Virus record (IMG/VR): IMGVR_UViG_3300025676_000021
Coordinates: 1 to 58,127 of that record
DNA length: 58,127 nucleotides
From: a virus
Lineage: Duplodnaviria > Caudoviricetes
Reading direction: 5' to 3' (one strand)
In this document: piece by piece, positions 1,397 to 57,195 of the stretch
Numbering within the stretch: the stretch's first letter is position 1
Layout: every line of letters starts with the position of its first letter
The notes under the pieces: model-generated
What the model saw: the letters and a program-made list of their open reading frames with translations, nothing else
The model's database searches: none
Told to the model about the DNA's origin: nothing
Program-made: the position numbers and the translations under genes

Positions 1397-3715
1397 ATGG
1401 CAGTAGAAAAAGTAACAGAGGAATTAGCAGAAGAAGTAGTTGAACAACCTGAGGGTCTTCCAGTTGACGTAGAAGTTGAGGGAGAAGAAGAGGTTGTAGA
1501 GGAAAGACCTCAAGACGATTTTAATGCAAACTTATCAGAAGACATGGACGAGCGAGAGCTTAAAGACATGGCCATGGAGCTTATTGAAGAATACAAAAAA
1601 GATAAGACATCTAGAAAAGAATGGGAAGATGCTTATATTAAAGGTTTAGATTTATTAGGAACTAAGTACCAGGAAGTAACAAAACCATTTAAAGGAGCTT
1701 CCGGTGTCACGCATCCATTGTTAGCTGAATCAGTTACACAATTCCAAGCACAAGCATATAAAGAATTAGTACCATCTGATGGTCCTGTACGGACACAGGT
1801 TATAGGTTTACAAACACCGGCTACCGAACAACAAGCAGATAGAGTTAAAGATTATATGAATTACCTGCTGATGGAGGAGATGGAAGATTACACAACTGAC
1901 ATGGATCAGATGTTATTTTATCTACCCTTATCCGGATCTACATTTAAGAAAATTTATTACGATGCATTATTAGATAGACCTGTATCTAAATTTATACCAG
2001 CAGAAGATTTAGTAGTTCCCTACTACGCATCAGATTTAAAAGACTGTGAGAGAATAACTCACGTAATTAAAATGACACAGAATGATGTCACTAAAAAAAT
2101 GGCTGCAGGTTTTTATAGAGATATAGAATTAATTGATTCAACAACAGAACCAGATTCAGTACAGAAAAAATTAAATGAACTAGAAGGTGTCAAAGGCACA
2201 GGTTCAGATTATTTAAATACAATTCTTGAAATGCACGTAGATTTAAATTTAGATGACTACGAAGATTTTGATGACAAAGCTAAAAAAATAAAAATTCCAT
2301 ATATTGTAACTATTGATGAAGGTAGTGGAGAAATTTTATCTATTTATAGAAACTACAAACCAGATGATCCCAGTTATTCAAGAGTAGAATATTTTGTACA
2401 TTACAAATTTTTACCAGGATTAGGTTTCTATGGTTTTGGTTTAACACATATGATCGGTGGTTTATCACAAGCTGCAACTCAATCTTTAAGACAATTGATT
2501 GATGCAGGTACTTTAAAAAATTTACCAGCAGGATTTAAATCACGTGGTATTAGAGTTAGAGATGATGATCAACCAATTCAACCAGGAGAGTTTAGAGATG
2601 TAGATGCACCTGGTGGAAATATAAGAGATCAGTTTTTTAATTTACCATTTACAGAACCATCACCAACTTTATACAACTTGATGGGATTTGTAGTACAAGC
2701 AGGACAGAAATTTGCAGCGATAACAGATTCAAATATTGGTAATGATGCTCAAAACAGAGCTGTTGGAACTACAATGGCGCTGATGGAAAGAGGATCACGT
2801 GTTATGAGTGGTGTTCACAAAAGATGTTACTACGCAATGAGACTAGAATTTAAAATTTTAGCTAGAATTTGCGGTGAATACTTACCACCAGAATATCCTT
2901 ACGATGTTTACGGGGGCCCAAGACAAATTAAACAAGCAGATTTTGATAACAGAGTAGATATTTTACCTGTTGCAGACCCAAATATTATGTCTATGTCACA
3001 AAGAGTGACGTTAGCACAAGCACAATTACAAATTGCACAATCAAATCCACAGATGCACAACTTACACGAAGCATATAGACGTGTTTACGAAGCACTTGGA
3101 ACAAAAACTATAGATCAAATTCTAAAACCACCTCCAAAACAACCCGAGCCTTTAGATCCTGCAAAAGAAAATGCACGTTCACTACAAATGAAGTTGCTTA
3201 CAGCGTTTGAATTCCAAGATCACGATGCTCACATCTCTGCTCACATGGCATTTATGGCATCTAGAATGGTACAGATTAATCCTCAGGTGTATGCATTATT
3301 ACAATCACACATCTCTGATCACATTTCATTTAAAGCTAAAGCACAAGTGAAACAAATAGTGATGGAAAATCCTGAAATGGCACAAATGGCTCAACAGGAT
3401 CCACAACAATTTGAAATTATGTTTGAAGCTGAAGTTGCAAAGGTTGCAGCACAGATTACACAAGAGTTAGTACAGACTGAACAAGCTAATCAAAACAAAG
3501 AAGACCCATTAATTAAAATTAAACAACAAGAAATTGATTTAAGAGCTATGGATCTTCAAAGAAAAGCTGAAGAAACTAAATTTAGAGCTGATCAAGAGAA
3601 TCAAAGAGCAGATCAAAGACTTGAATTTGATTATGATAGACTTGCACAACAAGATTCACAATCAGATGAACGTTTAGAAGTAGCGAGAGAGAAAATTGAC
3701 TCAAAGAAGAAATAA
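1397..3715 (+). CDS. Portal protein
   Basis: 772 aa; motifs PFKGASGVTHPLLAE, LFYLPLSGSTFKK, GFYGFGL, RQLIDAGTL; acidic N-terminus and Gln-rich coiled C-terminus as in P22-like portals; position in head module. Confidence 0.9.
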   Translation: MAVEKVTEELAEEVVEQPEGLPVDVEVEGEEEVVEERPQDDFNANLSEDMDERELKDMAMELIEEYKKDKTSRKEWEDAYIKGLDLLGTKYQEVTKPFKGASGVTHPLLAESVTQFQAQAYKELVPSDGPVRTQVIGLQTPATEQQADRVKDYMNYLLMEEMEDYTTDMDQMLFYLPLSGSTFKKIYYDALLDRPVSKFIPAEDLVVPYYASDLKDCERITHVIKMTQNDVTKKMAAGFYRDIELIDSTTEPDSVQKKLNELEGVKGTGSDYLNTILEMHVDLNLDDYEDFDDKAKKIKIPYIVTIDEGSGEILSIYRNYKPDDPSYSRVEYFVHYKFLPGLGFYGFGLTHMIGGLSQAATQSLRQLIDAGTLKNLPAGFKSRGIRVRDDDQPIQPGEFRDVDAPGGNIRDQFFNLPFTEPSPTLYNLMGFVVQAGQKFAAITDSNIGNDAQNRAVGTTMALMERGSRVMSGVHKRCYYAMRLEFKILARICGEYLPPEYPYDVYGGPRQIKQADFDNRVDILPVADPNIMSMSQRVTLAQAQLQIAQSNPQMHNLHEAYRRVYEALGTKTIDQILKPPPKQPEPLDPAKENARSLQMKLLTAFEFQDHDAHISAHMAFMASRMVQINPQVYALLQSHISDHISFKAKAQVKQIVMENPEMAQMAQQDPQQFEIMFEAEVAKVAAQITQELVQTEQANQNKEDPLIKIKQQEIDLRAMDLQRKAEETKFRADQENQRADQRLEFDYDRLAQQDSQSDERLEVAREKIDSKKK

Positions 3716-3851
3716 TTCATTGAGTGGAGGTGTATCTTCGGGTCCACCACCTAAGAGAGGGCCAAACCCACAAGGACTAACGCGAAAGAAGTTTAAAAGT
3801 GTCAAACAGTACACCAAAAAACTCATACGAAAGTCTTCCAGTAACATCTAA
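3696..3851 (+). CDS. Small basic protein with GPPPKRGPNPQG motif (not in ORF track)
   Basis: Hand-translated from TTG: MTQRRNNSLSGGVSSGPPPKRGPNPQGLTRKKFKSVKQYTKKLIRKSSSNI; overlaps portal stop. Confidence 0.6.
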   Translation: MTQRRNNSLSGGVSSGPPPKRGPNPQGLTRKKFKSVKQYTKKLIRKSSSNI

Positions 3852-4254
3852 ATTACTTTTTTTAGCTGGAATATTTGATGGAGAAGGTAGCTTTGGCATT
3901 TGGTCAAAGGGCATAGGAAGAAAAAAAGAATTTGCCTGCACAATAGAGATGACAGATAAGGATACACTGCAAAAATTTGTAGATATGTTTGGAGGTCAGA
4001 TGTTTCCTTGTAAAATAAGGAAACCACACCATACCCCAACCTGGAGATGGAGGCAGAATGGCTACAGGGCTTTCCAAATAATAGATAAAATGATAGAATT
4101 CATGAGTATAAGGAGACAGGATAAATATTATGTGGCTAAGCGCGATAAAATTGGCGGCACAAGCAGGTACGCACATATTCAAGAAGCGTCAAGAGACAAA
4201 GATGCTGATGGCGGATGCACAAATGATGCACGCAAGAAAGATGGCTCAAGGTGA
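3799..4254 (+). CDS. Free-standing single-motif LAGLIDADG homing endonuclease
   Basis: LLFLAGIFDGEGSF helix motif, then IEMTD..LQKF..MFGG and WRW strand typical of the LAGLIDADG fold. Confidence 0.85.
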   Translation: MSNSTPKNSYESLPVTSKLLFLAGIFDGEGSFGIWSKGIGRKKEFACTIEMTDKDTLQKFVDMFGGQMFPCKIRKPHHTPTWRWRQNGYRAFQIIDKMIEFMSIRRQDKYYVAKRDKIGGTSRYAHIQEASRDKDADGGCTNDARKKDGSR

Positions 4255-6712: not shown

Positions 6713-6930
6713 TGGACATAGATACAATATCACTCGTACAACATAAAGTTAAGAAAGCTTTAGCTAGACTCAAGTCACACGCTATATATGGTGTTGACAC
6801 CATGGAGAAACTACAATATGTTAGGGGTCAAATCAGATCTCTTGAGGATCTGCAACAGGATCTTAAAGACCTGCTGACAACAACGGAGTACGATGATGAA
6901 CAAGTCCACGGAGATACCGAAACGGACTGA
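6712..6930 (+). CDS. Conserved small head-module hypothetical protein
   Basis: Helical 72 aa (GVDTMEKLQYVRGQI) immediately before GroES. Confidence 0.6.
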   Translation: MDIDTISLVQHKVKKALARLKSHAIYGVDTMEKLQYVRGQIRSLEDLQQDLKDLLTTTEYDDEQVHGDTETD

Positions 6931-7342
6931 TGCTCTTCTAAATGCTTACAAAGCTAAAGAAGAAATAGAAACAGTCCTAGATCCTAAAAAGATCGACAAA
7001 TCAACATTAGATAGTCTACCAACACCAACTGGTTATAGAATTTTAGTTTTGCCATATGCAGGACCTAAAAAAACTAAAGGTGGTTTATGGCTTTCTGATG
7101 CAACACAAGAAACGATACAAATGACTACAGTGTGTGGTCTAGTATTAAAAATGGGAGATCTTTGTTATCATGATAAAGATAAATTCACAAACGGACCTTG
7201 GTGTACACTAAATGAATGGATTATTTTTAGTAGGTATTCAGGTTCTAGATTCAAAATAGATGGCGGTGAAGTAAGAGTGTTGAATGACGATGAAGTCATT
7301 GCAACAATTAAAGACCCAAATGATATTTTGCACCATTACTAG
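6893..7342 (+). CDS. groES: GroES/Cpn10-like co-chaperonin
   Basis: PTGYRILV...KTKGGLWL...GLVLKMG...FSRYSG...VLNDDEVIA matches the Cpn10 signature. Confidence 0.9.
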   Translation: MMNKSTEIPKRTDALLNAYKAKEEIETVLDPKKIDKSTLDSLPTPTGYRILVLPYAGPKKTKGGLWLSDATQETIQMTTVCGLVLKMGDLCYHDKDKFTNGPWCTLNEWIIFSRYSGSRFKIDGGEVRVLNDDEVIATIKDPNDILHHY

Positions 7343-10482: not shown

Positions 10483-10497
10483 ATGCTAGGTAATCTT

Positions 10498-11019
10498 ATG
10501 ATTATTAATAAAGATATTCAAAAAAAAGTAGATCAAGATTATTTTTTTATTCAAGGCAGGATACAATTAGATACTGAATATTTTATAAACAAAATAAATC
10601 AATCCTGCAATTCTGAAGACAATTTAAATTATCAAACAAACGTAAAAGGAAATATGACTCCTTTTAAATTTTTTCAAAAAGACCAAAATTTTATAAGACT
10701 ATTAAATATTTTTATTGAGTATGTTGATGAAAACGTATCTTTACGAAGCTACAAACTAAGTACTGCATGGGGTTTTTCAAATAAGCCCTTGGAAACAACT
10801 AATTTTCATGATCATTTTGGTTCGGTTTGGTCTGGAGCAATTTACTTAAATTCTTGTAATCAAACTTTAGATTTTCCTCAAATAAATCAATCATTAAAAC
10901 CAGAAGAAGGTTCTTTTGCTCTTTTTAGTTCTTTCCTAAATCATGGTTGTAAGAGAAATAAAGATAATTTTGAAAAATTTGGACTAAGTTTTAATATGGA
11001 AGAAGTTAAACCATGGTAA
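10498..11019 (+). CDS. Putative 2OG-Fe(II) oxygenase (HxH type)
   Basis: FHDH..WSGAIYL...LFSSFLNHG; start at 10498 or 10483. Confidence 0.7.
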   Translation: MIINKDIQKKVDQDYFFIQGRIQLDTEYFINKINQSCNSEDNLNYQTNVKGNMTPFKFFQKDQNFIRLLNIFIEYVDENVSLRSYKLSTAWGFSNKPLETTNFHDHFGSVWSGAIYLNSCNQTLDFPQINQSLKPEEGSFALFSSFLNHGCKRNKDNFEKFGLSFNMEEVKPW

Positions 11020-11029
11020 GCATAGAGTT

Positions 11030-11674
11030 ATGAAAGATGGTTTTCACTTATTGTTTGGTCTTCCAGTTTTTAAAACCAAAATTAATCCGAATGAATATAA
11101 TAAAAAAGACATTGTAGAAATAATTGATAATAATTTTAAAAAAGAAAAAGAAAGAAACGTTTGGTCCACAGATCCTTGGGGAACAAAAATACATCAATCT
11201 CTACACGATGATAACAATAAAAATTTCCAAACTCCAGATTATACCTTTGTTGCAAAAACATATGTAAAACCTTTGCAAGATTATCTTTCTCAATTAAATT
11301 TAAAACGAGATATTAAGTTTAATCTAAAAGTTATTAATTATACTGCTTCAAATTTTCAATCTTTAATGGAACCCCATCTGCACGGTAATAGTGAATTTAG
11401 TATGATTCACTATATAAAATTTGATAAAAATGAAAATGCCCCAACAACATTTTTAAACCCTTATAATTTTTTCGGTTACAATGTCCGAATGGAGCTTTTG
11501 TCCAATAAAATGAATTTAAAAAATTTGCAAAATAGCTGGAATATGGAAGAATGGGTTTATGATACAGAAGAAGATGATTTAATTATTTTTCCTGCAGTTT
11601 TGAAGCATATGGTAAAAAATAAAGATAGTAATAAACTAAGGATTACTTTAGCTGCAAATGTTGAGATATTCTAG
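11030..11674 (+). CDS. Putative 2OG-Fe(II) oxygenase (TIGR02466-like)
   Basis: LFGLPVF N-terminus, PHLH..FSMIHYI, IIFPAVLKHMV, RITLAAN. Confidence 0.8.
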   Translation: MKDGFHLLFGLPVFKTKINPNEYNKKDIVEIIDNNFKKEKERNVWSTDPWGTKIHQSLHDDNNKNFQTPDYTFVAKTYVKPLQDYLSQLNLKRDIKFNLKVINYTASNFQSLMEPHLHGNSEFSMIHYIKFDKNENAPTTFLNPYNFFGYNVRMELLSNKMNLKNLQNSWNMEEWVYDTEEDDLIIFPAVLKHMVKNKDSNKLRITLAANVEIF

Positions 11675-20847: not shown

Positions 20848-21597
20848 ATGTTTGAAAACGTTATTAAATTTAAGGCGTGTAAAGAATATGTTGAAAACAA
20901 CAAAGATATTTTTCCTGTACCGACAAAAACTAATATTCCGGAGTGGTTTAAAAAATTAGAGCACTCGGCTACAAATCAAACAATTAAGGGATGTATACCC
21001 TTTTTAGAAACTCTAACTTCAGGCTATCTACTAAAGATGCCAATAGATTATCTAATAGAACATAATGTGGATTTTAAGGATAAAAAACAAGCTGGTTTTA
21101 TGACTGGAATTTATCCAGATAATAATTTATCTAATAAGATAAATATTAACTATACTGATAGACCATCTTCACATCCAATTAAGCAATTAGGGGGTAGTCC
21201 TTTAGTTGATAAAAATAAAAAACTTCCTTTTCATAAAATATTAAATCCTTGGCAAATAGAAACCCCTCCTGGGTATTCAACTCTTTTTGTACCTCCTTTA
21301 AATAATTCAGATGATAGATTTTCTATAATTCCAGGTATTGTAGATACTGATTCTTTTGTTAACACTCATGAAATTAATTTTCCAATCGTAATAAATGGGG
21401 ACAAATACGAAACACTATGTTCAACAATTAAAAGAGGTACTCCTTATGTTCAATTAATTCCTTTCAAAAGAGATGATTGGAAGATGAAAATAGAAAACAC
21501 CGAGGATAATAAAATAAGTGTGAATAAATTTTTTCAAGTTAAACATGTTGTTCATAATTATAAAAAAGTTTTTTGGCGAAAAAAATCATGGAAATAA
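20848..21597 (+). CDS. DUF6065-like protein
   Basis: IPEWFK, TIKGCIPF..SGY, PWQIETPPGYSTLF, GIVDTD, IKRGTPYVQLIPFKR; family name recalled. Confidence 0.55.
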   Translation: MFENVIKFKACKEYVENNKDIFPVPTKTNIPEWFKKLEHSATNQTIKGCIPFLETLTSGYLLKMPIDYLIEHNVDFKDKKQAGFMTGIYPDNNLSNKININYTDRPSSHPIKQLGGSPLVDKNKKLPFHKILNPWQIETPPGYSTLFVPPLNNSDDRFSIIPGIVDTDSFVNTHEINFPIVINGDKYETLCSTIKRGTPYVQLIPFKRDDWKMKIENTEDNKISVNKFFQVKHVVHNYKKVFWRKKSWK

Positions 21598-22181
21598 GAG
21601 AAAGTGTATCAAACTACATAGTAACATTTGATAATGTAGTTCCAAATAAAGTATTAAATAGTTTTTATAAGTATTGTAAATATAATACTGATTTTACCAA
21701 GGCACAAATTATTGGCGAAAAAAAAGATAGATCCTCTGAAATAATTAATGAAAACGTTAGAAATGTTAGTAGTTTAAGATTAGATAAATATACTAATAGT
21801 CTTACTCAAATACATTGGGCTAATTTACTTAATTTTACTTTCTCTTATTTTATAAAAGAATACCAAATTATTTTAAATATGAACAATATTAGTTTTAAAA
21901 TTACAAATATAGATCTTTTAAAATACCAAAAAGAGGGACATTACAGTTTTCATGTTGATGATTGTGAAGGTTATCATAGAACTTTTAGTTGTATTCTACT
22001 TATTAATGATGAGTATGAAGGTGGTGATTTATTTTTTAAAAATGTAGTAACAAAAGAAATAACTAAAATTAATAAAGTTAAAAACAGAATTATTATATGG
22101 CCAAGTAATTTTTTATTTCCACATAAAATTTCACCAGTAACAAAAGGAGAAAGGTTTTCGGTGGTAGCATGGGCAGTATAG
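21573..22181 (+). CDS. Prolyl 4-hydroxylase-like 2OG-Fe(II) oxygenase
   Basis: FHVD, SCILLINDEYEGG, WPSNFLFPH..PVTKGERFS; start may be 21588. Confidence 0.88.
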   Translation: MAKKIMEIRESVSNYIVTFDNVVPNKVLNSFYKYCKYNTDFTKAQIIGEKKDRSSEIINENVRNVSSLRLDKYTNSLTQIHWANLLNFTFSYFIKEYQIILNMNNISFKITNIDLLKYQKEGHYSFHVDDCEGYHRTFSCILLINDEYEGGDLFFKNVVTKEITKINKVKNRIIIWPSNFLFPHKISPVTKGERFSVVAWAV

Positions 22182-22714
22182 GAAAAGACTTTAAATATAA
22201 AATAATAAAAAACTTTTTATCGAAAGACGAAAGGGATATATTAACAATATATTGTGAAATTAAACACAGAAATAACTTTAGTAGTTTTGATTTTGACCAA
22301 AGTAACAACGCAGACACTAGATACTATGGAGATGCTGTAATAGATTCATTATTAGTAAAAAAGAAAAAACTAATAGAAAGAGAATGTGGAAAAAACCTTT
22401 TAGGAACTTATTCTTTTTGGAGAGCTTATACTAGATTTGCTGATTTACCAAAGCACACAGATAGACCAGCTTGTGAAATAAGTGTAACAGTTAGTATTGG
22501 TGGGGATGATGTAAAGTGGCCTATTTTTATGGACGGTACTTCTATCAGCTTAGAAAAAGGAGATGCCGCACTTTATCTGGGTTGTGAAGTTTCTCATTGG
22601 AGAGAAGAATTTGAAGGTGATTGTCAGTTTCAATGTTTCCTACATTACGTAGATGCAGATGGTGAAAATAAACAACAGTATTTAGATAAAAGAAACAATT
22701 GGGGGCAGTCGTGA
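22169..22714 (+). CDS. 2OG-Fe(II) oxygenase-like protein
   Basis: LPKHTDRPACEISVT, GDAALYLG, HWRE, FLHY. Confidence 0.8.
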   Translation: MGSIGKDFKYKIIKNFLSKDERDILTIYCEIKHRNNFSSFDFDQSNNADTRYYGDAVIDSLLVKKKKLIERECGKNLLGTYSFWRAYTRFADLPKHTDRPACEISVTVSIGGDDVKWPIFMDGTSISLEKGDAALYLGCEVSHWREEFEGDCQFQCFLHYVDADGENKQQYLDKRNNWGQS

Positions 22715-46087: not shown

Positions 46088-46573
46088 TTAAATTTCAACT
46101 GAACTGTTAAATGAAATTATTATCTTATCTTTTTCGTAAATATTTTTTTTAGATTCATGTTTATAAAATCCTGGAAAAGTAATTAAATGACCTTCACCTG
46201 AAGTAAATTTTTGATTCTCAATACTTGTCGTAGAGTCTGGTCCTGGTAATTGTAAATAAAAAACATTTGTAAAATTAGTTTTTGCATGAGTGTGTAATTG
46301 ATGAAAATTATTTTTTTTATAAATTTGATACCAACTGTGATCACATTGAAATTGTGTGGCTTTGTAATATTCTAAAAACCATTTAGAAAATTCTTTTAAA
46401 ACTTGTTCTTTAAATAATTCAAACCATTCACCTTTGGCTTTAGAAAAATAGTCTGTCTTATAAATATTTTCGAAAGGTTTGCCGAGGTCGTCATTATAAA
46501 TTAACCCAATAAGTTCTTTATTAAATTTTTTAAAATTTTTAATATTATATGAAGTAATATAATTTTGAGACAT
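46088..46573 (-). CDS. Putative 2OG-Fe(II) oxygenase (HxH type)
   Basis: WYQIY..NFHQLHTH..FTNVFYL, ITFPGFYKHES, KIIISFN. Confidence 0.75.
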   Translation of the reverse strand: MSQNYITSYNIKNFKKFNKELIGLIYNDDLGKPFENIYKTDYFSKAKGEWFELFKEQVLKEFSKWFLEYYKATQFQCDHSWYQIYKKNNFHQLHTHAKTNFTNVFYLQLPGPDSTTSIENQKFTSGEGHLITFPGFYKHESKKNIYEKDKIIISFNSSVEI

Positions 46574-47254: not shown

Positions 47255-47284
47255 TATCCTATATTATCCTACCTTATTATTTAC

Positions 47285-47312
47285 TTGCATATCCCATTAA
47301 AATCTTTATATA
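47285..47312 (+). promoter_or_regulatory. Sigma70-like promoter with ATCCCAT box
   Basis: TTGCAT-ATCCCATTAAAATCTT-TATATA; upstream TATCCTA repeats at 47255 and 47265. Confidence 0.55.
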
Positions 47313-47346
47313 TAAACTATTACAATACTAACAAAGAGGATATCAA

Positions 47347-47601
47347 ATGGCAACACAAGAGAACCAACCATTAGTTTTAAGAAACGAGTGGGAAGTAAAA
47401 GAAAAAGATAAGTTTACATCAAGTGCACAAAACTTGACTGTAACTTTTAACAAAGCAACAGACGAGATTACTTTATTAGTGAACAACGAAGTTTACAAAA
47501 AACTTAAAGTAAAAGATGCACTTAACGGCAGTATAAAGTTTCATGATGCTGTTGGTACTATAATTCAAAAATTTACAATGTGGGGTTTTGATGCCAAATA
47601 A
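47347..47601 (+). CDS. Hypothetical protein
   Basis: AACAAAGAGGA RBS; 84 aa. Confidence 0.65.
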   Translation: MATQENQPLVLRNEWEVKEKDKFTSSAQNLTVTFNKATDEITLLVNNEVYKKLKVKDALNGSIKFHDAVGTIIQKFTMWGFDAK

Positions 47602-47848: not shown

Positions 47849-47936
47849 TATGATGTTTATTGCATTACTAACCATTATCCCTGCAAAAGTATTATTATTT
47901 ATTTTTGCATCACTGGGATATTTAATGTTCTATTAA
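47829..47936 (+). CDS. Hydrophobic microprotein
   Basis: MKDLIFSMMFIALLTIIPAKVLLFIFASLGYLMFY. Confidence 0.5.
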   Translation: MKDLIFSMMFIALLTIIPAKVLLFIFASLGYLMFY

Positions 47937-47949
47937 CCAAGGAGGAAAA

Positions 47950-48738
47950 ATGAACAAAGCGATACATAATAAATTTTTTGAAACTACTGATTACAGTAAA
48001 TTCAAAAAGACTAGAGGTAACCGACCTGTAGATGAAGCACACGTGCAACAACTTAAAAAGTTGATTGAAGAAAAAGATTTATACGATCCAATTCGTGTAA
48101 ATAAAAATATGGAAGTCATTGATGGCCAACATACATTAGAAGCTAGAAAACAATTAGATCTTAAGATTCCATTTATTATTATGGACTCTGATGATCCATT
48201 GGATGTGGCTAGACTAAACACAGGTCGTAAGAACTGGTCTATGGAAAATTATTTAGATCAACACTGTGCAAGAAATAAAATGGACTACCGTATTTGTAGA
48301 AACAAAATGCAACAATACGGAATTAATGTTGCAGAGATGGTGGTGCTTTTGTTAAAGCAAACTTCCTTGTGGACAAGAATCAGTAATGATTTTAAAACAG
48401 GACGATTTGTAATTCCTGCAGGAGGTATTGAACATACTGATCGTATTGGATCACAATTAATGCAACTTAAAAAATATTTCTATGGTATGGAATCCACAAA
48501 GAATAAAAGATTCAAACGTTCCATGGTGGTGTCTTATATTGTTGCTGACAAACATCCTAAATTTGATCCTAAAAGATTTAAAACTGCTTGTAAGAGTAAA
48601 TCTTCATGGTTTTTAACGGGTACGTCTACTGCTGATTATATTGCGATTATTGAACGTATCTATAACGCAGGGTTGGTACATAGAAATAAAATAAATTTAG
48701 TTGAGTTTTATAAAACTAAAGAGTATCAAGAGAAATAG
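47950..48738 (+). CDS. ParB/Srx N-terminal domain protein
   Basis: GNRPVD..HV..L, PIRVN...VIDGQH.LEA, LNT..KNW; AGGAGG RBS. Confidence 0.8.
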   Translation: MNKAIHNKFFETTDYSKFKKTRGNRPVDEAHVQQLKKLIEEKDLYDPIRVNKNMEVIDGQHTLEARKQLDLKIPFIIMDSDDPLDVARLNTGRKNWSMENYLDQHCARNKMDYRICRNKMQQYGINVAEMVVLLLKQTSLWTRISNDFKTGRFVIPAGGIEHTDRIGSQLMQLKKYFYGMESTKNKRFKRSMVVSYIVADKHPKFDPKRFKTACKSKSSWFLTGTSTADYIAIIERIYNAGLVHRNKINLVEFYKTKEYQEK

Positions 48739-48746
48739 GAGAAATA

Positions 48747-48956
48747 ATGGACGTAAACAAATGGAAATCAATTGCTGTTGATATCGAATCATACACAATT
48801 ATTAGGGCTATGGGGGAGAATGGCCTTAGAAACCCAGGCAACATGATAAAAAAAATGGTTAGTGATTCTATTAAAAAGATAGCTAAGAAAGAAAATGTTG
48901 CTGAACCTAAGATGAAAGAAAATTTATTGAATCAAGGAAAGAAACTCTTGAAGTAA
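48747..48956 (+). CDS. Small putative DNA-binding protein (ribbon-helix-helix-like)
   Basis: KWKSIAV strand followed by two helices; AGGAG RBS. Confidence 0.45.
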   Translation: MDVNKWKSIAVDIESYTIIRAMGENGLRNPGNMIKKMVSDSIKKIAKKENVAEPKMKENLLNQGKKLLK

Positions 48957-48991: not shown

Positions 48992-49017
48992 AGGGCCGCG
49001 AGAGTGGCCCTTTTTTT
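48992..49017 (+). terminator. Rho-independent terminator
   Basis: AGGGCCGC-GAGA-GTGGCCCT followed by T tract. Confidence 0.85.
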
Positions 49018-50924: not shown

Positions 50925-51141
50925 AAGATTTAAAGCTTTAGGAATGTTGGGTTCTCATTTGTTTACTACTGGTAAAAACTATTTTAAAGCTGGTGGGAAA
51001 AAAACTAAAGATATTATGAGAGAATCAAGCGTATCTAGAGATACAGCTAAAGCTGATATAAAATGGGAGATTAAGAGAAAAGCCTTTCCAAGAGGTGGTA
51101 AAAAACCATCTGATTTTTATAACAAACCTAAAGGAAGATAA
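50917..51141 (+). CDS. Basic hypothetical protein
   Basis: GGAGG RBS; TAATG-coupled to terS. Confidence 0.6.
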   Translation: MYKRFKALGMLGSHLFTTGKNYFKAGGKKTKDIMRESSVSRDTAKADIKWEIKRKAFPRGGKKPSDFYNKPKGR

Positions 51142-51671
51142 TGCCTGGTGGACTTAAAAAAAAATCATTAAGAACTGAATTAGATTTAACTCCCAAACAA
51201 AAAATGTTTGTGGAAATATACGTTAAAGATTGGGGTTCTATTACACAAGCTGAAGCTCTAAAACGTGCAGGCTATGTGTGTACTAACGAAAAAGATTATG
51301 GATCTGTTGCATCTAGAATGTTGTCTAGAAAACACAGCCCCCATATTGCAAATTATTTTGATAAATTATTTGATCTTGAAAAAAAGAAATATGAAAGTGA
51401 CAACCTTAGAAGATATAAAAGGTTAGAAAGAATTGCTGACAAAGCAGAGAAAGAAAAACAATTCGCTGCTGCTATCAATGCTGAATATAGATCTGGTCAA
51501 TTGGCTGGAGCATATGTTGATCGTAAAGAAGTAACTGTTAGTGGTCTGGAGGGTATGTCACGTGAGCAACTTGAGAAAAAGTTACAGGAACTATCAAACA
51601 AAATCGATGGCTTCAATGCCAAAACGATTGAAGTTGAGTCCGAAGACGTTACAGCAATTGAAAAAGGCTAG
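51141..51671 (+). CDS. terS: Terminase small subunit
   Basis: LTPKQKMFVEIY...TQAEALKRAGY...ASRML helix-turn-helix; AAINAE..G.LAGAYVDRKE oligomerisation region. Confidence 0.8.
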   Translation: MPGGLKKKSLRTELDLTPKQKMFVEIYVKDWGSITQAEALKRAGYVCTNEKDYGSVASRMLSRKHSPHIANYFDKLFDLEKKKYESDNLRRYKRLERIADKAEKEKQFAAAINAEYRSGQLAGAYVDRKEVTVSGLEGMSREQLEKKLQELSNKIDGFNAKTIEVESEDVTAIEKG

Positions 51672-51754
51672 TTGGACTGAATGGTTAGATGCTTTTAACC
51701 AAGTACATAACTCCACCATCACCACTTCAATTGGTAAAATTAAGGTAGAGATTG

Positions 51755-52078
51755 ATGACTAGAAAGAAACGACAACAATCAAAAATACTTAACTTTGATT
51801 TTAAAAATCTCGGAAATGTTATTGACGACTATCCATTTGTAGAAATTGAGTGGTGTGATATCGAAGGTGATGCCGGCTGGTCTAACACAAAGGATTTAAA
51901 CAAAGAACAACTACCTGTATGTGTCTCAAAAGGTTATTTGTTAAGTCAAAAAAATGGTATTACAAGGATATTTAGTGACTACATTAAGTCTAAAGATAAA
52001 CCAACGTTTGACAATATTGGTGCAACAACTATTATTCCAACAGCAGTGATTAAATCAATTAGGAAAATTAAACTATAA
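51755..52078 (+). CDS. Conserved phage hypothetical protein
   Basis: VEIEWCDI..DAGW...CVSKGYLL...IIP..VI. Confidence 0.6.
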   Translation: MTRKKRQQSKILNFDFKNLGNVIDDYPFVEIEWCDIEGDAGWSNTKDLNKEQLPVCVSKGYLLSQKNGITRIFSDYIKSKDKPTFDNIGATTIIPTAVIKSIRKIKL

Positions 52079-52093
52079 ATAACTTACTCAATC

Positions 52094-52501
52094 ATGTCTA
52101 ATAAAAACGGGGAATCTAGACTATGGCAAAAGGTAAAAAAAGGACTTACTGATTGCTTCTTAACGCGCATAGAATCCAGTACAATCAACGGTATTCCAGA
52201 TATTCACGCAGTCATGGGCAATGAAGTTTTTTGGATGGAATTAAAATCAGATTCATTAAGTTATCCGAAGCTTAATAAGTGGCAAGTTGTTTGGATCAAT
52301 AAATATATAATGGCTGGTGGTAAAGTTATTATCTTGGATGAGACACTCTTGCAGAAGTCTCTTAAACTCTACAGACCGGTGTCCGTTTTCACTGATCCTC
52401 GTTCCCTCGTGCCGTTTGCCTCGTTCTCGTTCCCGTTACAATGGCCACTGGTCCAGCGCAGGATGCTGCAGGAGCTGGGACGGCAGCCTGATGCAGCGTG
52501 A
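52094..52501 (+). CDS. Holliday junction resolvase / VRR-NUC-like nuclease
   Basis: E..LW, RIES...GIPD, FWMELK, Q..W PD-(D/E)XK pattern. Confidence 0.75.
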   Translation: MSNKNGESRLWQKVKKGLTDCFLTRIESSTINGIPDIHAVMGNEVFWMELKSDSLSYPKLNKWQVVWINKYIMAGGKVIILDETLLQKSLKLYRPVSVFTDPRSLVPFASFSFPLQWPLVQRRMLQELGRQPDAA

Positions 52502-52731
52502 TCCTCGTTCTCGTGCCCTGGCCACTGATCTTTTCCCTCTTTGTTTGATCAGTGGCCTGGGGACCAGCAGCAGGTGGTACAGCTCAGGTCTCGTTTCTCG
52601 TTGACAAACCTCGCTCGTTCTCGTTAAACTTAACTACACTGGTCCCGCCAGAGCAGCTGGTACGCATCCTTCAGGATCCAGGTGAAGCTCTCGTTTCTCG
52701 TTCTCGGTAATGGATAAACCTCGTTCTCGTT
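52398..52731 (+). repeat. Strand-biased CTCGTT short-repeat array
   Basis: About 12 CTCGTT copies (counted by eye) plus CTCG variants, often as tandem pairs, all on the + strand. Confidence 0.8.
52516..52561. ncRNA. Candidate hairpin sRNA with anti-Shine-Dalgarno loop
   Basis: GGCCACTGATC/GATCAGTGGCC perfect 11-bp stem; loop TTTTCCCTCTTTGTTT complementary to phage early RBSs. Confidence 0.45.
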
Positions 52732-52804
52732 TACTGGCCAACGGTGACGTCCCTGCAGGGTGAGCTTCAGGGGGGTGCAGACTGGAATCAGGAGAAACTT
52801 TTGC

Positions 52805-52833
52805 TTGACGAGTATCCCATGATGTCGTATGGT
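52805..52833 (+). promoter_or_regulatory. Early sigma70 promoter with TATCCCAT box
   Basis: TTGACG-17 nt (AGTATCCCATGATGTCG)-TATGGT. Confidence 0.65.
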
Positions 52834-52856
52834 CAGACTAAACAAAGGATGAAAAG

Positions 52857-53015
52857 ATGTTTCGAAAGATAAGATCAAATAATTTAGATAAAATAAATAG
52901 ACTTCAATCAATGAAGACCTATCCTATAGGAGCAAGGGGTAAAAGAGATGTTCGTATAAATAAATTAATAAATAAATTATATAATAGAAAGGAAGGATAT
53001 GGCAATAGATTTTGA
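52857..53015 (+). CDS. Basic early microprotein (52 aa, not in ORF track)
   Basis: MFRKIRSNNLDKINRLQSMKTYPIGARGKRDVRINKLINKLYNRKEGYGNRF; AAAGGA RBS; first ORF after promoter. Confidence 0.5.
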   Translation: MFRKIRSNNLDKINRLQSMKTYPIGARGKRDVRINKLINKLYNRKEGYGNRF

Positions 53016-53193
53016 TGCCCTCGATCTCGTTCGAGGAGAGAACAAAGCTCGTTTATATAACACTAAGTTAGACGGACTCCAGCAGCAGGTGACTGAGCTC
53101 ACCAAGCTGGTAACCGATGTGGTAAAAGAACTTCCAAAGGAAAAGGTATGGTCGTTTGAAGAAAGATTAAAAAAAATAAAAGAAAGGGGTTGA
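52999..53193 (+). CDS. Early hypothetical protein
   Basis: AGGAAGGA RBS; coiled coil. Confidence 0.6.
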   Translation: MAIDFDALDLVRGENKARLYNTKLDGLQQQVTELTKLVTDVVKELPKEKVWSFEERLKKIKERG

Positions 53194-53218
53194 CAGGTAT
53201 CCCATCGTGTCTTATATA
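53190..53218 (+). promoter_or_regulatory. Early sigma70 promoter with TATCCCAT box
   Basis: TTGACA-17 nt (GGTATCCCATCGTGTCT)-TATATA. Confidence 0.75.
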
Positions 53219-53224
53219 TACATC

Positions 53225-53286
53225 GCACCTTCAGGTGAGACTGTTATGCCATGGCCGCGCAAGTGTCTTGTTCCACCTGATGGTGT
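53225..53286 (+). other. Long 5'-leader stem-loop
   Basis: GCACC-T-TCAGGTG pairs with CACCTGA-T-GGTGT; inner AGAC/GTCT; starts at the predicted transcription start and ends just before the RBS. Confidence 0.55.
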
Positions 53287-53305
53287 TTAACCAAAGGAGA
53301 ACTAC

Positions 53306-53491
53306 ATGATAAGTAAAAAACTAATACAGCAGATGAACAATTATTATGATCAAGAGTATATCAAAGATGAGTCAAAGCCCAAGGAAGACAAACCTGAAGA
53401 AGGCAAAGTATACGCACTGACCGGTGACCGGGGCACGCGCTGCATTGCAAACGGTAACACGTGGAAAGACTCGGAGGTGAAGGATGACTGA
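53306..53491 (+). CDS. Early hypothetical protein
   Basis: AAGGAG RBS; 61 aa. Confidence 0.6.
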   Translation: MISKKLIQQMNNYYDQEYIKDESKPKEDKPEEGKVYALTGDRGTRCIANGNTWKDSEVKDD

Positions 53492-53846
53492 TGAGCTGAA
53501 GGAATGGTATCTGATGCCAAGCATCACCGAATGCCTCGTGGAGTACGAGAAGCAGGACATAGGTTTGATTGCAGACATTGCTAAACACGGCTGCTCAGGA
53601 GGAGTCGCTGGTATCGTATACTACGATGAAACAACTTCGTTTCATGATCACCATCAAGAGGAGATCTGGCAATTGGTCCAGGACCACGCGGATGCAGCTG
53701 GACTGAAGAACGGTGAGTTTCTACAGCACATAACCAAAGATCCAAGCTCGTTGAAGCATTTAGTTAATGATCTCGTCTGGTGGGCGGTCGAAGTTAGGGC
53801 TCAGGAGCTGCATGAACTGGTACCTGCAGCTGGAGCGTCCACATGA
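53484..53846 (+). CDS. Acidic early protein
   Basis: DIAKHGCSGG..G.VYY.ET..F...N.LVWWAVE; GGAGG RBS. Confidence 0.65.
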   Translation: MTDELKEWYLMPSITECLVEYEKQDIGLIADIAKHGCSGGVAGIVYYDETTSFHDHHQEEIWQLVQDHADAAGLKNGEFLQHITKDPSSLKHLVNDLVWWAVEVRAQELHELVPAAGAST

Positions 53847-54224: not shown

Positions 54225-54653
54225 ATGGGATTAGATCAACACGCACACCTTCGAGGTCAAGAGGTAGATTGGGAACAATACTACTCTGATGATGATTACG
54301 GAGATAAGGCAAAAGTTTTTGTGTGGAGAAAACACGCAAGACTTCAACAGTTCATGGCGAAGAAGTGGGACGAACAAAACACAACTCATAAACATGAGGG
54401 AATGCTTTCAAGTTTAGGTTTTAATGGCGATTGTGAAGCACCTTGCTATATGACTGAAGACGTTGTCAAAGAATTAGCCGAACAGATACAGAAAGATTTT
54501 TCTGACTATCACGCAACAGACGGATATTTCTGGGGTCAACAATCACAAGAGGAAAGTGTCAAGCACTACAAGGAACAAGATATCAAGTTCCTCAAATTCT
54601 GTGAACAAGCGATCAATGAAAAAAAGGTCGTTGAATATTGGTGTAGTTGGTAA
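54225..54653 (+). CDS. Conserved early protein (MGLD...WRK family)
   Basis: MGLDQ, WRKHARLQ.FM, GFNG, GYFWG, V.Y.CSW; strong RBS. Confidence 0.7.
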   Translation: MGLDQHAHLRGQEVDWEQYYSDDDYGDKAKVFVWRKHARLQQFMAKKWDEQNTTHKHEGMLSSLGFNGDCEAPCYMTEDVVKELAEQIQKDFSDYHATDGYFWGQQSQEESVKHYKEQDIKFLKFCEQAINEKKVVEYWCSW

Positions 54654-54900: not shown

Positions 54901-54944
54901 TTAGAGGTATTTATAAAAATACATAACTTAACAAAGAGGTAAAA

Positions 54945-55271
54945 ATGCAAACAGCAAAAAAGCTAAAGCAAGACGAAAAAAAAGTTGTCCTAGCTTATGC
55001 AACACTAAAGCTAAAAGCAAATAGACTTAACAAAGAGTTAGATAGCATGAAAGAGCATGTTGTTAATCTATTTGATAGAACAAACCAAAACTTAATTATT
55101 GTTCAAGATGAGCATGGAAATAGTTTTGGATTGCAAAAGATTAACAGAGTTAGAAAATCTTTTGATAAAGATAAATTTAAATTATCACATTTAGATTTAT
55201 ACAATGCTCACCAAAAGCAAATTGCTTATTGTGAGTATAAGGCTATTGGCGAGGTATCAAATGCCCAATAA
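54945..55271 (+). CDS. Early hypothetical protein
   Basis: AACAAAGAGG RBS; coiled coil then RKSFDKDKFK..H.DLY. Confidence 0.65.
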   Translation: MQTAKKLKQDEKKVVLAYATLKLKANRLNKELDSMKEHVVNLFDRTNQNLIIVQDEHGNSFGLQKINRVRKSFDKDKFKLSHLDLYNAHQKQIAYCEYKAIGEVSNAQ

Positions 55272-55534: not shown

Positions 55535-55564
55535 ACCAATGGCGTCTTAACTGACGCCATTGGT
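55535..55564 (+). other. 12-bp perfect hairpin at end of early operon
   Basis: ACCAATGGCGTC-TTAACT-GACGCCATTGGT; no U-tract; overlaps a GGTGTATCT copy. Confidence 0.65.
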
Positions 55565-55716: not shown

Positions 55717-57195
55717 ATGAAAATAGAAAACTTAACTGAAGATGAATTAAAAGATATTATTCTAAAAAAACAGTTGGAGTGGATCAAGCTGTGCCAGGAT
55801 AATTTTTTAATTTTTGCCGAGTCTGTCTGGCAAGATTTTATCTATCGTAAAACAAAGGACCCAAAGAAATACGGGCACCATCAAATTATTGCTGAGTCTT
55901 TCCAAGAAATTGCTGATGGAGATGCAAAGAGGCTCATAATCAATATGCCACCCCGTCATACTAAATCTGAATTCGCATCTTATTTATTCCCTGCTTGGTA
56001 TATTGGAAAGTATCCAAAGAAAAAAATTATGCAAGTTTCCCACAACGCTGAACTTGCTTCAAGGTTCGGTAGCAAAGTTCGTAACTTAATGAATACCAGA
56101 GAGTATAAAGAAATTTTTGGAAGTGTTACACTTCGAGAAGATAGTAAAGCAAAAGGCAGGTGGGAAACCAATCATGGTGGTGAATACTTTGCAGCGGGTG
56201 TTGGCGGATCTATTACAGGTCGAGGGGCCGATTTGCTTATTATTGATGATCCACATACGGAACAAGATTCCTTATCGGATACAGCAATGGAACGTGCTTA
56301 TGAATGGTACAGTTCAGGACCCAGACAGCGTTTACAACCGGGAGGAAGAATCTTAGTTGTCATGACTCGTTGGGCTACCGATGATCTTACAGGAAGGTTG
56401 GTGAAGGCACAGAGTGAAACTAAAGCTGATCAATGGGAGGTAATTTCTTTTCCTGCGATCATGCCTGATGATAAACCGGTGTGGCCTGAGTATTGGGGTA
56501 AAGATGATTTAGATTCTGTGAAAGCCTCAATCTCTACAAAAAATTGGAATGCACAATATATGCAGGACCCAACCTCAGAAGAGGGTGCAATTATAAAAAG
56601 GGATTGGTGGCAAAATTACGATAAAGAAAATTTACCAAAGTTATTACACGTAATTCAAAGTTATGATACTGCATTTTCTAAAAAAGAAACTGCAGATTAC
56701 TCTGCTATTACCACCTGGGGGGTATTTGAACCTGTAGAAGGTTATGAAAAAGCAATTATATTATTAGATGCTCAAAAGGGACGTTATGATTTTCCAGATT
56801 TAAAAAATGTTGCGTTAGAACAGTATCATTACTGGGAACCGGAAACTGTGATCATTGAAGCTAAAGCTAGTGGTACACCATTAATTCATGAACTTAGACG
56901 TGCAGGAATTCCTGTAATTGATTATGTACCAGCTAGAGGACGAGACAAGCATACTAGAATAAATAGCTGTGCACCTGTATTTGAGTCTGGTATGGTGTGG
57001 GCACCTTTAGAAGAACACTGGGCACAGGAAGTAATTGAGGAATGTGCAGCGTTCCCTAATGGACAATACGATGACTATGTTGATTCTATGACCCAAGCTG
57101 TGTTAAGATATCGACAAGGTGGATTTGTTTCAACATATTCTGATGATTGGGATGATGACAACATTAAAGTAGAAAAAGATTATAAATATTATTAG
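55717..57195 (+). CDS. terL: Terminase large subunit
   Basis: NMPPRHTKS Walker A, GRGADLLIIDDP Walker B, MTRW, SYDTA..ADYSA, IEAKASG, FPNGQYDDYVDS nuclease. Confidence 0.96.
   Translation: MKIENLTEDELKDIILKKQLEWIKLCQDNFLIFAESVWQDFIYRKTKDPKKYGHHQIIAESFQEIADGDAKRLIINMPPRHTKSEFASYLFPAWYIGKYPKKKIMQVSHNAELASRFGSKVRNLMNTREYKEIFGSVTLREDSKAKGRWETNHGGEYFAAGVGGSITGRGADLLIIDDPHTEQDSLSDTAMERAYEWYSSGPRQRLQPGGRILVVMTRWATDDLTGRLVKAQSETKADQWEVISFPAIMPDDKPVWPEYWGKDDLDSVKASISTKNWNAQYMQDPTSEEGAIIKRDWWQNYDKENLPKLLHVIQSYDTAFSKKETADYSAITTWGVFEPVEGYEKAIILLDAQKGRYDFPDLKNVALEQYHYWEPETVIIEAKASGTPLIHELRRAGIPVIDYVPARGRDKHTRINSCAPVFESGMVWAPLEEHWAQEVIEECAAFPNGQYDDYVDSMTQAVLRYRQGGFVSTYSDDWDDDNIKVEKDYKYY

Follow-up and report, generated by a model that had tools for sequence, protein, structure and literature searches.

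Location and structure of the hairpin

The window analyzed here is a virus record of 58,127 bases (IMGVR_UViG_3300025676_000021), estimated to be 95% complete. It is a relative of the Pelagibacter phages HTVC023P and HTVC027P, with which its large terminase shares 70% and 62% identity, respectively. At 52516-52561 on the + strand, a hairpin with a pyrimidine-rich loop follows a run of genes that includes the small terminase subunit. This hairpin is the subject of the present analysis and, from comparison of sequences, we see about an even chance that it is an antisense-type regulatory RNA of the phage.

The gene run in front of the hairpin contains terS, encoding the terminase small subunit (51141-51671, + strand; phrog_51, 6.4e-11; Pfam Terminase_2, 29 bits), and an open reading frame (ORF) of 135 amino acids at 52094-52501 on the + strand, which has a weak nuclease- or Hjc-like similarity (phrog_2165 and phrog_93; Hjc at 16.5 bits, below the cut-off). 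Among relatives, the stop codon of this ORF is preserved as TGA, TAA or TAG. Since the stop lies 14 nt ahead of the outer helix, the hairpin is located in the 3' untranslated region (UTR) of the ORF. Read-through of the stop codon was considered and rejected, as it would add just 8 further codons.

All parts of the hairpin were assigned on the + strand. An outer helix of 3 bp is formed by CCC (52516-52518) and GGG (52559-52561), both sides being supported by fold and covariation. It is followed by a 1x1 mismatch, in which T at 52519 stands opposite T at 52558, and by the main stem with the 5' arm GGCCACTGATC (52520-52530) and the 3' arm GATCAGTGGCC (52547-52557), the latter again supported by fold and covariation. 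The stem closes the 16-nt loop TTTTCCCTCTTTGTTT (52531-52546), the proposed seed, in which the unpaired probability is at least 0.8 at each position. The original prediction had placed a hairpin with a perfect 11-bp stem and its loop at 52516-52561, and this span proved exact.

The 81-nt fold of the + strand reaches -36.3 kcal/mol compared with -23.5 +/- 3.0 kcal/mol for 200 shuffled sequences (z -4.3), none of which folded as well (0/200). On the minus strand, the fold of the hairpin region is likewise far more stable than that of shuffles (z -5.1). Rfam gave no match across the whole window at the gathering score, and at E <=10 the hairpin region showed only six weak hits, in which models of microRNAs, snoRNAs and small RNAs (sRNAs) with gathering scores of 45-90 reached 13-24 bits. 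A larger structured RNA across the whole GC-rich island that surrounds the hairpin was dropped, since visual inspection of an alignment of 11 sequences brought out no further helix with clear support. A small minus-strand ORF of 29 codons with a GTG start in the stem is improbable, as it runs opposite to the conserved 3' end of a coding region and the strand evidence given below speaks against it.

Conservation, covariation and folding strand

Relatives were collected via the neighbouring protein, for which 348 related stretches are present in IMG/VR; the best 80 of these 348 were taken. Pattern searches added further contigs, leading to a total of 118 distinct sequence contexts with 53 distinct hairpins. 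Here, the wide pattern TGGCCAC..GTGGCCTGG returned mostly unrelated contigs, with about 11 real ones among at least 95 new loci. The hairpin is present in 79 of the 80 related contigs, and the 80th is truncated by the contig end.

The stem is well-supported by covariation. In 46 distinct sequences, 93.9% of the stem cells are paired, versus 27-52% if the partners are slid by 1-3 columns. Double-sided changes occur at 8 of the 15 pairs, and the covariation score of 0.245, compared with 0.130 in shuffles, was reached by 0 of 500 shuffles. The four outer GGCC pairs were never altered among the relatives, and the inner pairs covary: the inner arms exist in at least six distinct complementary sequences, among them CTGAT/ATCAG, CTGAA/TTCAG, CCGT/ACGG, CCGAC/GTCGG, CCAAT/GTTGG, CGTTA/TAACG, ATG/CAT and others. 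At inner pair 6, the 53 distinct hairpins carry CG in 23, GC in 15 and TA in 15 cases. The outer helix covaries as well, from CCC/GGG to CTC/GAG or CCT/AGG, with its pair 3 being CG in 45, TG in 5 and TA in 3 hairpins. The 1x1 mismatch stays mismatched in 52 of the 53, being T.T in 46/53 and Watson-Crick in 1/53.

The loop behaves differently from the stem, being conserved among the relatives while the stem is variable. Its core CCTCTT(T/A)GTT occurs in all 118 contexts, a set that was partly found by patterns requiring this core, and varies only at the one T/A position and at the base 5' of CCTC. These two positions define four loop classes (base 5' of CCTC/T-A position), namely C/T in 61, T/T in 24, A/A in 17 and A/T in 16 contexts. 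The loop length among relatives is 16-18 nt and the stem length 10-11 bp. A stem that is kept above a loop that is not had been named beforehand as the case speaking against a regulatory loop, and the opposite is seen.

The pairs also reveal which strand folds. When pairs were counted without an alignment, starting from the GGCC ends of each of the 53 hairpins, 13 positions yielded 621 Watson-Crick pairs, 44 T.G, 0 A.C or C.A and 24 other combinations (689 cells); an earlier alignment-based wobble count gave 41 vs 2. A T.G pair on the + strand is C.A on the minus strand, and the ratio of 44 to 0 therefore indicates that it is the + strand that folds, and as a single strand. For a protein site in duplex DNA or a minus-strand RNA, such a wobble asymmetry would not be expected. 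The folded + strand is most simply an RNA, because all flanking genes have it as their sense strand and the gene run shows no terminator ahead of the hairpin. Thus, a stable structure with a single-stranded seed, as it is typical for antisense RNAs, is seen in the fold, the loop accessibility and the stem covariation.

For tracing the hairpin, the covariance model R1 was built. A scan with R1 gave no match in HTVC023P or HTVC027P, and a crude hairpin scan of 15 kb of each of these two genomes found no analogue; one hairpin of HTVC023P resembles a bidirectional terminator. Among the isolate phages compared, no isolate of the hairpin-bearing lineage was found.

Complementarity of the loop to phage initiation regions

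The 16S rRNA of the host ends at its 3' side with ...GGATCACCTCCTTTCTAAGGA and its anti-Shine-Dalgarno tail is CCUCCUUU. The loop core CCCUCUUU is identical to this tail minus one C. At the same time, the loop core CCCUCUUUGUU is, in antisense, an exact match to AACAAAGAGG, which consists of a leader and the non-canonical Shine-Dalgarno sequence AAAGAGG. This AAAGAGG pairs imperfectly with the host tail and perfectly with the loop.

In the window, the exact 10-mer AACAAAGAGG is found in four copies on both strands, the loop included, versus 0.47 +/- 0.67 in shuffled sequences, of which 0/100 reach four. Both + strand copies coincide exactly with the initiation regions of the genes starting at 47347 and 54945, here called genes A and B. 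The matches quoted for these ribosome-binding sites (RBSs) in the original prediction, at 47330 and 54930, are thus correct, AACAAAGAGG being exact at both. Less stringent matches are hardly enriched: for the 16-mer with <=3 mismatches, 7 hits compare with 3.8 +/- 2.1, and 11 of 100 shuffles reach 7.

The best proposed target is the initiation region of gene B, TAACAAAGAGGTAAAAATG (54929-54947, + strand), in which 54929-54944 differs at 2 of 16 positions from the complement of the loop and for which the net pairing energy, after opening of the target, is -11.9 kcal/mol. Gene B (54945-55271, + strand) encodes 108 amino acids and belongs to no PHROG or Pfam family, only to clusters of hypothetical viral proteins. 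Immediately upstream of its AACAAAGAGG site, its 5' UTR contains a hairpin of its own, GTATTT-ATAA-AAATAC (54906-54921), which covaries in relatives (GTATTC/GAATAT, GCAATC/GATTGT, GCAAAC/GTTTGT). The second proposed target is the initiation region of gene A, TAACAAAGAGGATATCAAATG (47328-47349, + strand), with the exact 10-mer and a net energy of -9.7 kcal/mol. Gene A (47347-47601, + strand; 84 amino acids) is of no known family and is the first + strand gene past a divergent intergenic region. For both genes, a search of the ESM Atlas returned only hypothetical proteins. Gene B lies 2.4 kb downstream and gene A 5.2 kb upstream of the hairpin.

Weaker candidates on the + strand are the initiation region of the next downstream gene, which starts at 52857 (AAACAAAGGATGAAAAGATG, 52840-52859; 16/19 complementary, -9.7 kcal/mol), and that of the ParB-like gene (47935-47952; -9.8 kcal/mol), each with 3 differences from the 16-nt loop complement. 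Weaker AACAAAGGAG-type leaders are present at 52840 and 54208, and the gene at 54225 reaches -8.7 kcal/mol. The other seven sites, namely those of five unrelated genes (52999, terL, terS, major capsid and portal), 47588 and 53306, have net energies of -0.4 to -5.7 kcal/mol. Of the six sites quoted in the original prediction, five therefore hold at -8.7 to -11.9 kcal/mol, and the sixth, 53306, falls off at -2.9 kcal/mol. Within this one genome, pairing to RBSs is weakly supported, as the sequence shows over-representation only for the exact 10-mer.

Once relatives are compared, the complementarity becomes clearly non-random. Among contexts with at least 2.7 kb of downstream sequence, 49/50 carry a perfect complement of at least 10 nt to their own loop at an initiation region 1.4-3.2 kb downstream, a site that belongs to homologues of gene B, and among those with at least 5.3 kb of upstream sequence, a complement of at least 10 nt to the own loop is found at about -4 to -5 kb, the homologous site of gene A, in 15/15. 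As controls, the same-sense loop reached 10 nt in 0/50 and shuffled complements in 30/250. Homologues of gene B, identified by tblastn and not by the motif (protein identity 55-98%), are preceded by AACAAAGAGG in 45 of 46 distinct upstream regions and by AATAAAGAGG in the remaining one. If loop complement and gene B site are aligned on AAGAGG, 13-17 of 18 positions agree in 74/74 contexts, and the A/T loop class displays a perfect 17-nt complement, TTAACAAAGAGGTAAAA, to its gene B site. The upstream site belongs to gene A homologues and reads TAACAAAGAGGAGGCC...ATGGCAAC. Some relatives show matches also at the gene after A (TCAACAAAGAGGTGCCGATG) and at the ParB-like gene (AACAAAGAGGAAAAG); for the latter, the site in contigs L106, L123 and L135 is AACAAAGAGGAAAA, which is complementary over 14 nt to the loop of the respective contig. 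The complementarity of the seed to target initiation regions, a second hallmark of antisense RNAs, is thus kept in relatives, and the two RBSs that had been ranked best (54930 and 47330) retain it in 74/74 and 15/15 contexts, respectively.

The motif is not a host motif. In three Pelagibacter genomes of ~1.3-1.4 Mb, AACAAAGAGG occurs 2, 4, and 6 times, which is the level of a reversed-pattern control; the 10-mer, by its distribution, belongs to the phage. Host targets were consequently rejected, since AACAAAGAGG and a related 11-mer are found only at control level in these three genomes. HTVC023P and HTVC027P contain 0 exact copies of AACAAAGAGG, and the hairpin is absent there, too.

Proposed mechanism

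The proposed mechanism builds on the structure, its strand, the conserved loop and the conserved complementarity to phage initiation regions, from which RNA identity, pairing, repression and timing are inferred. A structured RNA would arise from the + (sense) strand as part of the 3' UTR of the terS-nuclease gene run. In this RNA, the 3-bp outer helix, the 1x1 mismatch and the 10-11-bp stem would hold open the pyrimidine-rich loop of 16-18 nt. Pairing of the loop with an mRNA over 10-17 bp would mask the Shine-Dalgarno sequence, in some lineages also the AUG, and would exclude the 30S subunit. Gene B would be the foremost target, followed by gene A, in some relatives by the gene after A and the ParB-like gene, and more weakly by the 52840 and 54208 leaders. 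Transcription past the hairpin would thereby lead to translational shutdown of the target genes. The RNA could act in trans after being processed from the 3' UTR, or else within read-through transcripts, and would need no Hfq.

Hfq (PF17209) gave no match in 3/3 Pelagibacter genomes (G001-G003, behind L214, L223 and L251), in which CsrA (PF02599) gave no match either; control genomes match for both. A host without Hfq fits a seed that is presented by structure in a loop. Since AAAGAGG is an imperfect partner of the host tail and a perfect one of the loop, the RNA would out-compete the ribosome. One may go further and postulate a private Shine-Dalgarno code, in which a few operon-leading genes use AACAAAGAGG, a poor partner of the host tail CCUCCUUU, and a single Hfq-independent hairpin carrying a one-base-deleted copy of the 16S tail out-competes the ribosome at exactly these genes; this extension is speculative and we hold it to be doubtful.

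With respect to transcripts, a strong terminator-like hairpin with a T run is located at 48992-49011, after the gene at 48747-48956. This site probably places gene A on another transcript than the hairpin, and the idea that they are the two ends of one mRNA was dropped. Downstream of the hairpin lies a conserved sigma-70-like promoter, TTGACG-17-TATGGT, with the invariant spacer TATCCCATGATGTCG (52805-52833, + strand). This promoter in front of 52857 is conserved across relatives including its spacer (TTGACnnGTATCCCATGATGTCGTATGGT). Directly past the -35 hexamer, a box TATCCCAT is common to the promoters of 52857 and gene A (TTGCATATCCCAT; windows 52805-52845 and 47270-47300), and this shared box may mark a phage-specific promoter class. 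Four of 17 RNA runs were compared with the window. Contigs of three of these, marine metatranscriptome runs from two studies, cover ~53.0-55.5 kb at 99-100% identity, and among the contigs listed none lies over 50.5-53.0 kb. That the small genes between the island and terL are well expressed is only a lead, as contigs cannot rank expression. In the fourth run (X5), the hairpin bin is low between two high bins. Neither pattern can tell whether an RNA is made there, and an apparent 233-nt 'skip' in the X5 contigs was explained by the repeat modules.

Several observations weigh against an antisense function. The original prediction had expected preferential pairing to early RBSs, and by energy these do not stand out within the single genome: when + strand windows are ordered by their duplex energy with the correct loop, the RBSs take only about the 14th and 18th place, several purine-rich coding windows beat them, and shuffled loops of the same composition match the real loop in pairing with 85 initiation regions (calculated with a loop slice shifted by 3 nt). 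A pairing of 10-17 bp within a closed 16-nt loop would be topologically strained. Covariation of loop and RBS, proposed as a check, came out mixed. In the 17 contexts with a CTTAGTT loop, the target still carries the uncompensated A at 11 of 12 candidate sites and is compensated at one (L386, -4197); the compensating T of L386 is the sole AACTAAGAGG among 98 exact AAC(A/T)AAGAGG sites counted. At 15/16 downstream sites, the T of GAGGT at gene B offers A-class loops an additional pair, but this T is also present with other loop classes. The two commonest loop classes do not pair with gene B at the base 5' of CCTC, which faces the base following GAGG, and the leader of the next downstream gene (52840) does not track the loop in two natural experiments. 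A ACTAACAAAG-type leader is found also in HTVC023P, which is without the hairpin, and conservation of the motif may therefore partly serve the start of translation or transcription. Furthermore, the related contigs share ancestry, and the counts among them are thus not independent events. Finally, the RNA data consist of assembled contigs, from which neither transcript ends nor strand nor level can be read.

The GC-rich repeat island and the surrounding genome

The hairpin is embedded in a GC-rich island (52380-52800), the most GC-rich stretch of the genome, with a GC content of up to 0.595 vs 0.348 for the genome. The island begins within the 3' end of the ORF at 52094-52501 and continues as noncoding DNA. 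It contains CTCGTT hexamer arrays in four modules, in each of which a TGGCCAC/ACTGGTCC-type motif comes after the tandem hexamers. Nine matches to CTCGTTCTCGTT (<=2 mismatches), versus 2.6 +/- 1.7 in shuffles, were counted, six of which fall in 52420-52731. The number of modules varies among relatives by blocks of ~85-110 nt. One module includes TTGACA-18-TAAACT (52601-52630), and the modules are possible tandem promoters, regulator sites or packaging sites.

The final ~30 codons of the ORF (window 52400-52450) are near-invariant in DNA among 11 aligned relatives, third positions included, and contain a CTCGTT module and TACAAT. This suggests that the coding sequence overlaps a signal at the nucleic-acid level, possibly a promoter for the hairpin. 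In HTVC027P (L002), GCTTGNN heptamer arrays are present in the equivalent terS-terL region (2920-3060, 3810-3850 and 4140-4165), and two of these arrays immediately precede the TTGACA promoters from which gp33 and gp34 would be read on the minus strand. Both genes are highly expressed from early to middle infection according to passages of the published transcriptome, which describe all early genes of HTVC027P as being of unknown function (PMC12753301). The gp32 annotated in HTVC027P falls within an array of 7-nt repeats and is perhaps not a genuine gene.

Nearly all genes of the window are encoded on the + strand. terL (55717-57195) is followed by the portal, head, lysis and tail genes and then by replication genes (primase, helicase and DNA polymerase), which extend to 45799. 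Three minus-strand genes come next, and after them a + strand run with gene A (47347), the ParB-like gene, terS and the nuclease-like ORF 52094-52501. Auxiliary-type genes, as labeled by PHROG, comprise four 2OG-Fe(II) oxygenase-like genes and one ferrochelatase-like gene (10483-11674, 21573-22714, 46088-46573), and a GroES-like gene is located at 6893-7342. A 12-bp palindromic hairpin lies at 55535-55564, between 55521 and terL.

Alternative explanations

The conserved loop could also be a binding site on the RNA for a protein, such as a phage antiterminator, a repressor of translation, a factor for RNA processing or stability, or ribosomal protein S1, and its likeness to an anti-RBS would then be a by-product of pyrimidine richness. 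A loop sequence kept while the stem covaries is known from protein-recognised operator hairpins, an invariant CGTTCTCG stands directly 5' of the hairpin with CTCGTT arrays around it, and the covariation between loop and targets is weak. In addition, this phage group lacks an own RNA polymerase and relies on that of the host, as stated in passages of the HTVC027P transcriptome study (PMC12753301), which makes an RNA-borne control of transcription plausible. We nevertheless regard a protein site as unlikely, since it leaves the match of 13-17/18 at gene B in 74/74 contexts and the perfect 17-mer unexplained, and no candidate RNA-binding protein is found among the neighbouring genes by PHROG and Pfam. 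The rRNA leader and spacer of Pelagibacter share TTAGCTTTTTTAAATTGTAAAT, which is by its position likely the host boxA, and the loop is unlike it. A nut-type boxA/boxB site with the loop as a mimic of the boxA consensus was rejected for this reason and because the loop has 16-18 nt and not 5 nt.

An action in cis only would confine the pairing to terS read-through transcripts, in which the loop would meet the RBS of the next gene ~300 nt downstream (52840), so that 52857 would be translated only from its own promoter at 52805. Here, 52528-52546 and 52840-52858 are complementary at 16 of 19 positions with the net energy of -9.7 kcal/mol given above, no terminator-like site separates the hairpin from the 52857 gene, and the promoter with its AAACAAAGGAG leader is conserved in relatives. 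Nonetheless, the relatives match this leader over just 8-9 contiguous nt, a clade with the leader GAGGAAAAAGGAGG keeps the same loop, a clade with an altered loop keeps the AAACAAAGGAG leader, and gene B is matched better in all 74 contexts. A role restricted to this neighbour is therefore improbable.

There is a similarly small probability that the element acts as DNA, that is, as an inverted repeat bound by a protein, as a cruciform or as a hairpin of single-stranded DNA, for packaging, replication or transcription control in the CTCGTT island. The location in the most GC-rich stretch among short direct repeats of variable module number would fit to this, as would terS 850 nt upstream, the recurrence of the arm motif TGGCCACTG without a partner at 52441 and of its variant TGGCCAAC at 52736, and the comparable heptamer arrays in the same genome region of HTVC027P. 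On the other side, the arms covary and offer no single fixed recognition sequence, and the conserved 1x1 mismatch would be senseless in duplex DNA. For the duplex form only, an equal deviation on both strands would be expected in place of 44 T.G vs 0 A.C, and a single-stranded DNA hairpin of the + strand would be compatible with the sequences. A protein-bound palindrome, be it a cos/pac site or an operator, was therefore rejected on this asymmetry and on the six or more complementary sequences of the inner arms.

On the minus strand, the original prediction had offered a decoy for an RBS-binding repressor. This had to be given up, also in the form of a CsrA/Rsm-type decoy, because the 44 wobble cells pair only on the + strand and would be C.A on the minus strand, and because no CsrA is found in 3/3 Pelagibacter genomes or in the phage. 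Lastly, an ordinary end-of-operon hairpin, terminator or 3' stabiliser, without any sequence-specific role would suit an element that closes a gene run, 14 nt past its last stop codon, and is yet very improbable, since no T run follows, 51500-53500 holds 0 terminator-like sites, host terminators are canonical hairpin-plus-T structures, e.g., upstream of the rRNA leader, and an invariant 16-nt loop over a changing stem is unexpected for either. An intrinsic terminator in particular was rejected on the 16-nt loop, on TGGGGACCAGC after the stem with no U run, and on the empty terminator scan.

Comparison with known systems

In the full-text literature, which covers few subscription journals and no supplements, no description of this hairpin or of a pelagiphage regulatory RNA was found, and PMC9599517 makes no mention of promoter, noncoding or intergenic. 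Should the private Shine-Dalgarno code considered above exist, which we hold to be doubtful, one 3'-UTR RNA would be a timer that silences a regulon in the ocean's most abundant known phage group, and pelagiphages would have gained their first described regulatory RNA. A covariation-supported element with named candidate targets provides a concrete and cheaply testable hypothesis of post-transcriptional control in a host that shows no Hfq and no CsrA. Furthermore, the covariance model R1 is a defined motif, by which the lineage can be traced in metagenomes and metatranscriptomes.

The nut sites of phage lambda consist of boxA and a boxB hairpin, the loops of which have 5 nt. They share with the element a sense-strand hairpin with a conserved loop just past a gene, a conserved single-stranded motif ahead of it and the use of the host polymerase. 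In contrast, the loop described here has 16-18 nt and is unlike the candidate host boxA, and no N-like protein is present among the PHROG and Pfam matches.

In Staphylococcus and Bacillus, RNAIII, the Rsa RNAs and RoxS use C-rich UCCC loops to bind the Shine-Dalgarno sequences of several mRNAs, largely without Hfq. The similarity lies in a pyrimidine-rich motif, resembling an anti-Shine-Dalgarno sequence, that is displayed in a hairpin loop. These sRNAs are, however, host-encoded and contain several hairpins and a terminator, whereas the present element is carried by a phage and would use a longer seed of 10-17 nt, fitted to the phage's own non-canonical AAAGAGG, in a host that shows no Hfq.

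Similar in principle is also the c4 RNA (immI) of phages P1 and P7, which pairs at the icd ribosome-binding site and is processed from the same transcript. In both cases, a phage encodes a structured RNA, the exposed sequence of which pairs, or in the present case would pair, with an own mRNA and block expression of a downstream gene. According to passages of PMC8198154, which mention a C4 binding site, full repression of ant in P1/P7 needs the C4 antisense RNA. The hairpin is without sequence or Rfam relation to c4. Unlike c4, it is a single hairpin with one long loop in a 3' UTR, its candidate targets, located 2.4 kb downstream and 5.2 kb upstream, are parts of separate transcription units, it comes from a group of lytic phages, and processing and activity of the hairpin are putative. 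With no family in Rfam, the element would thus represent a new RNA family that follows a known antisense principle, in an ecologically dominant phage group infecting SAR11.

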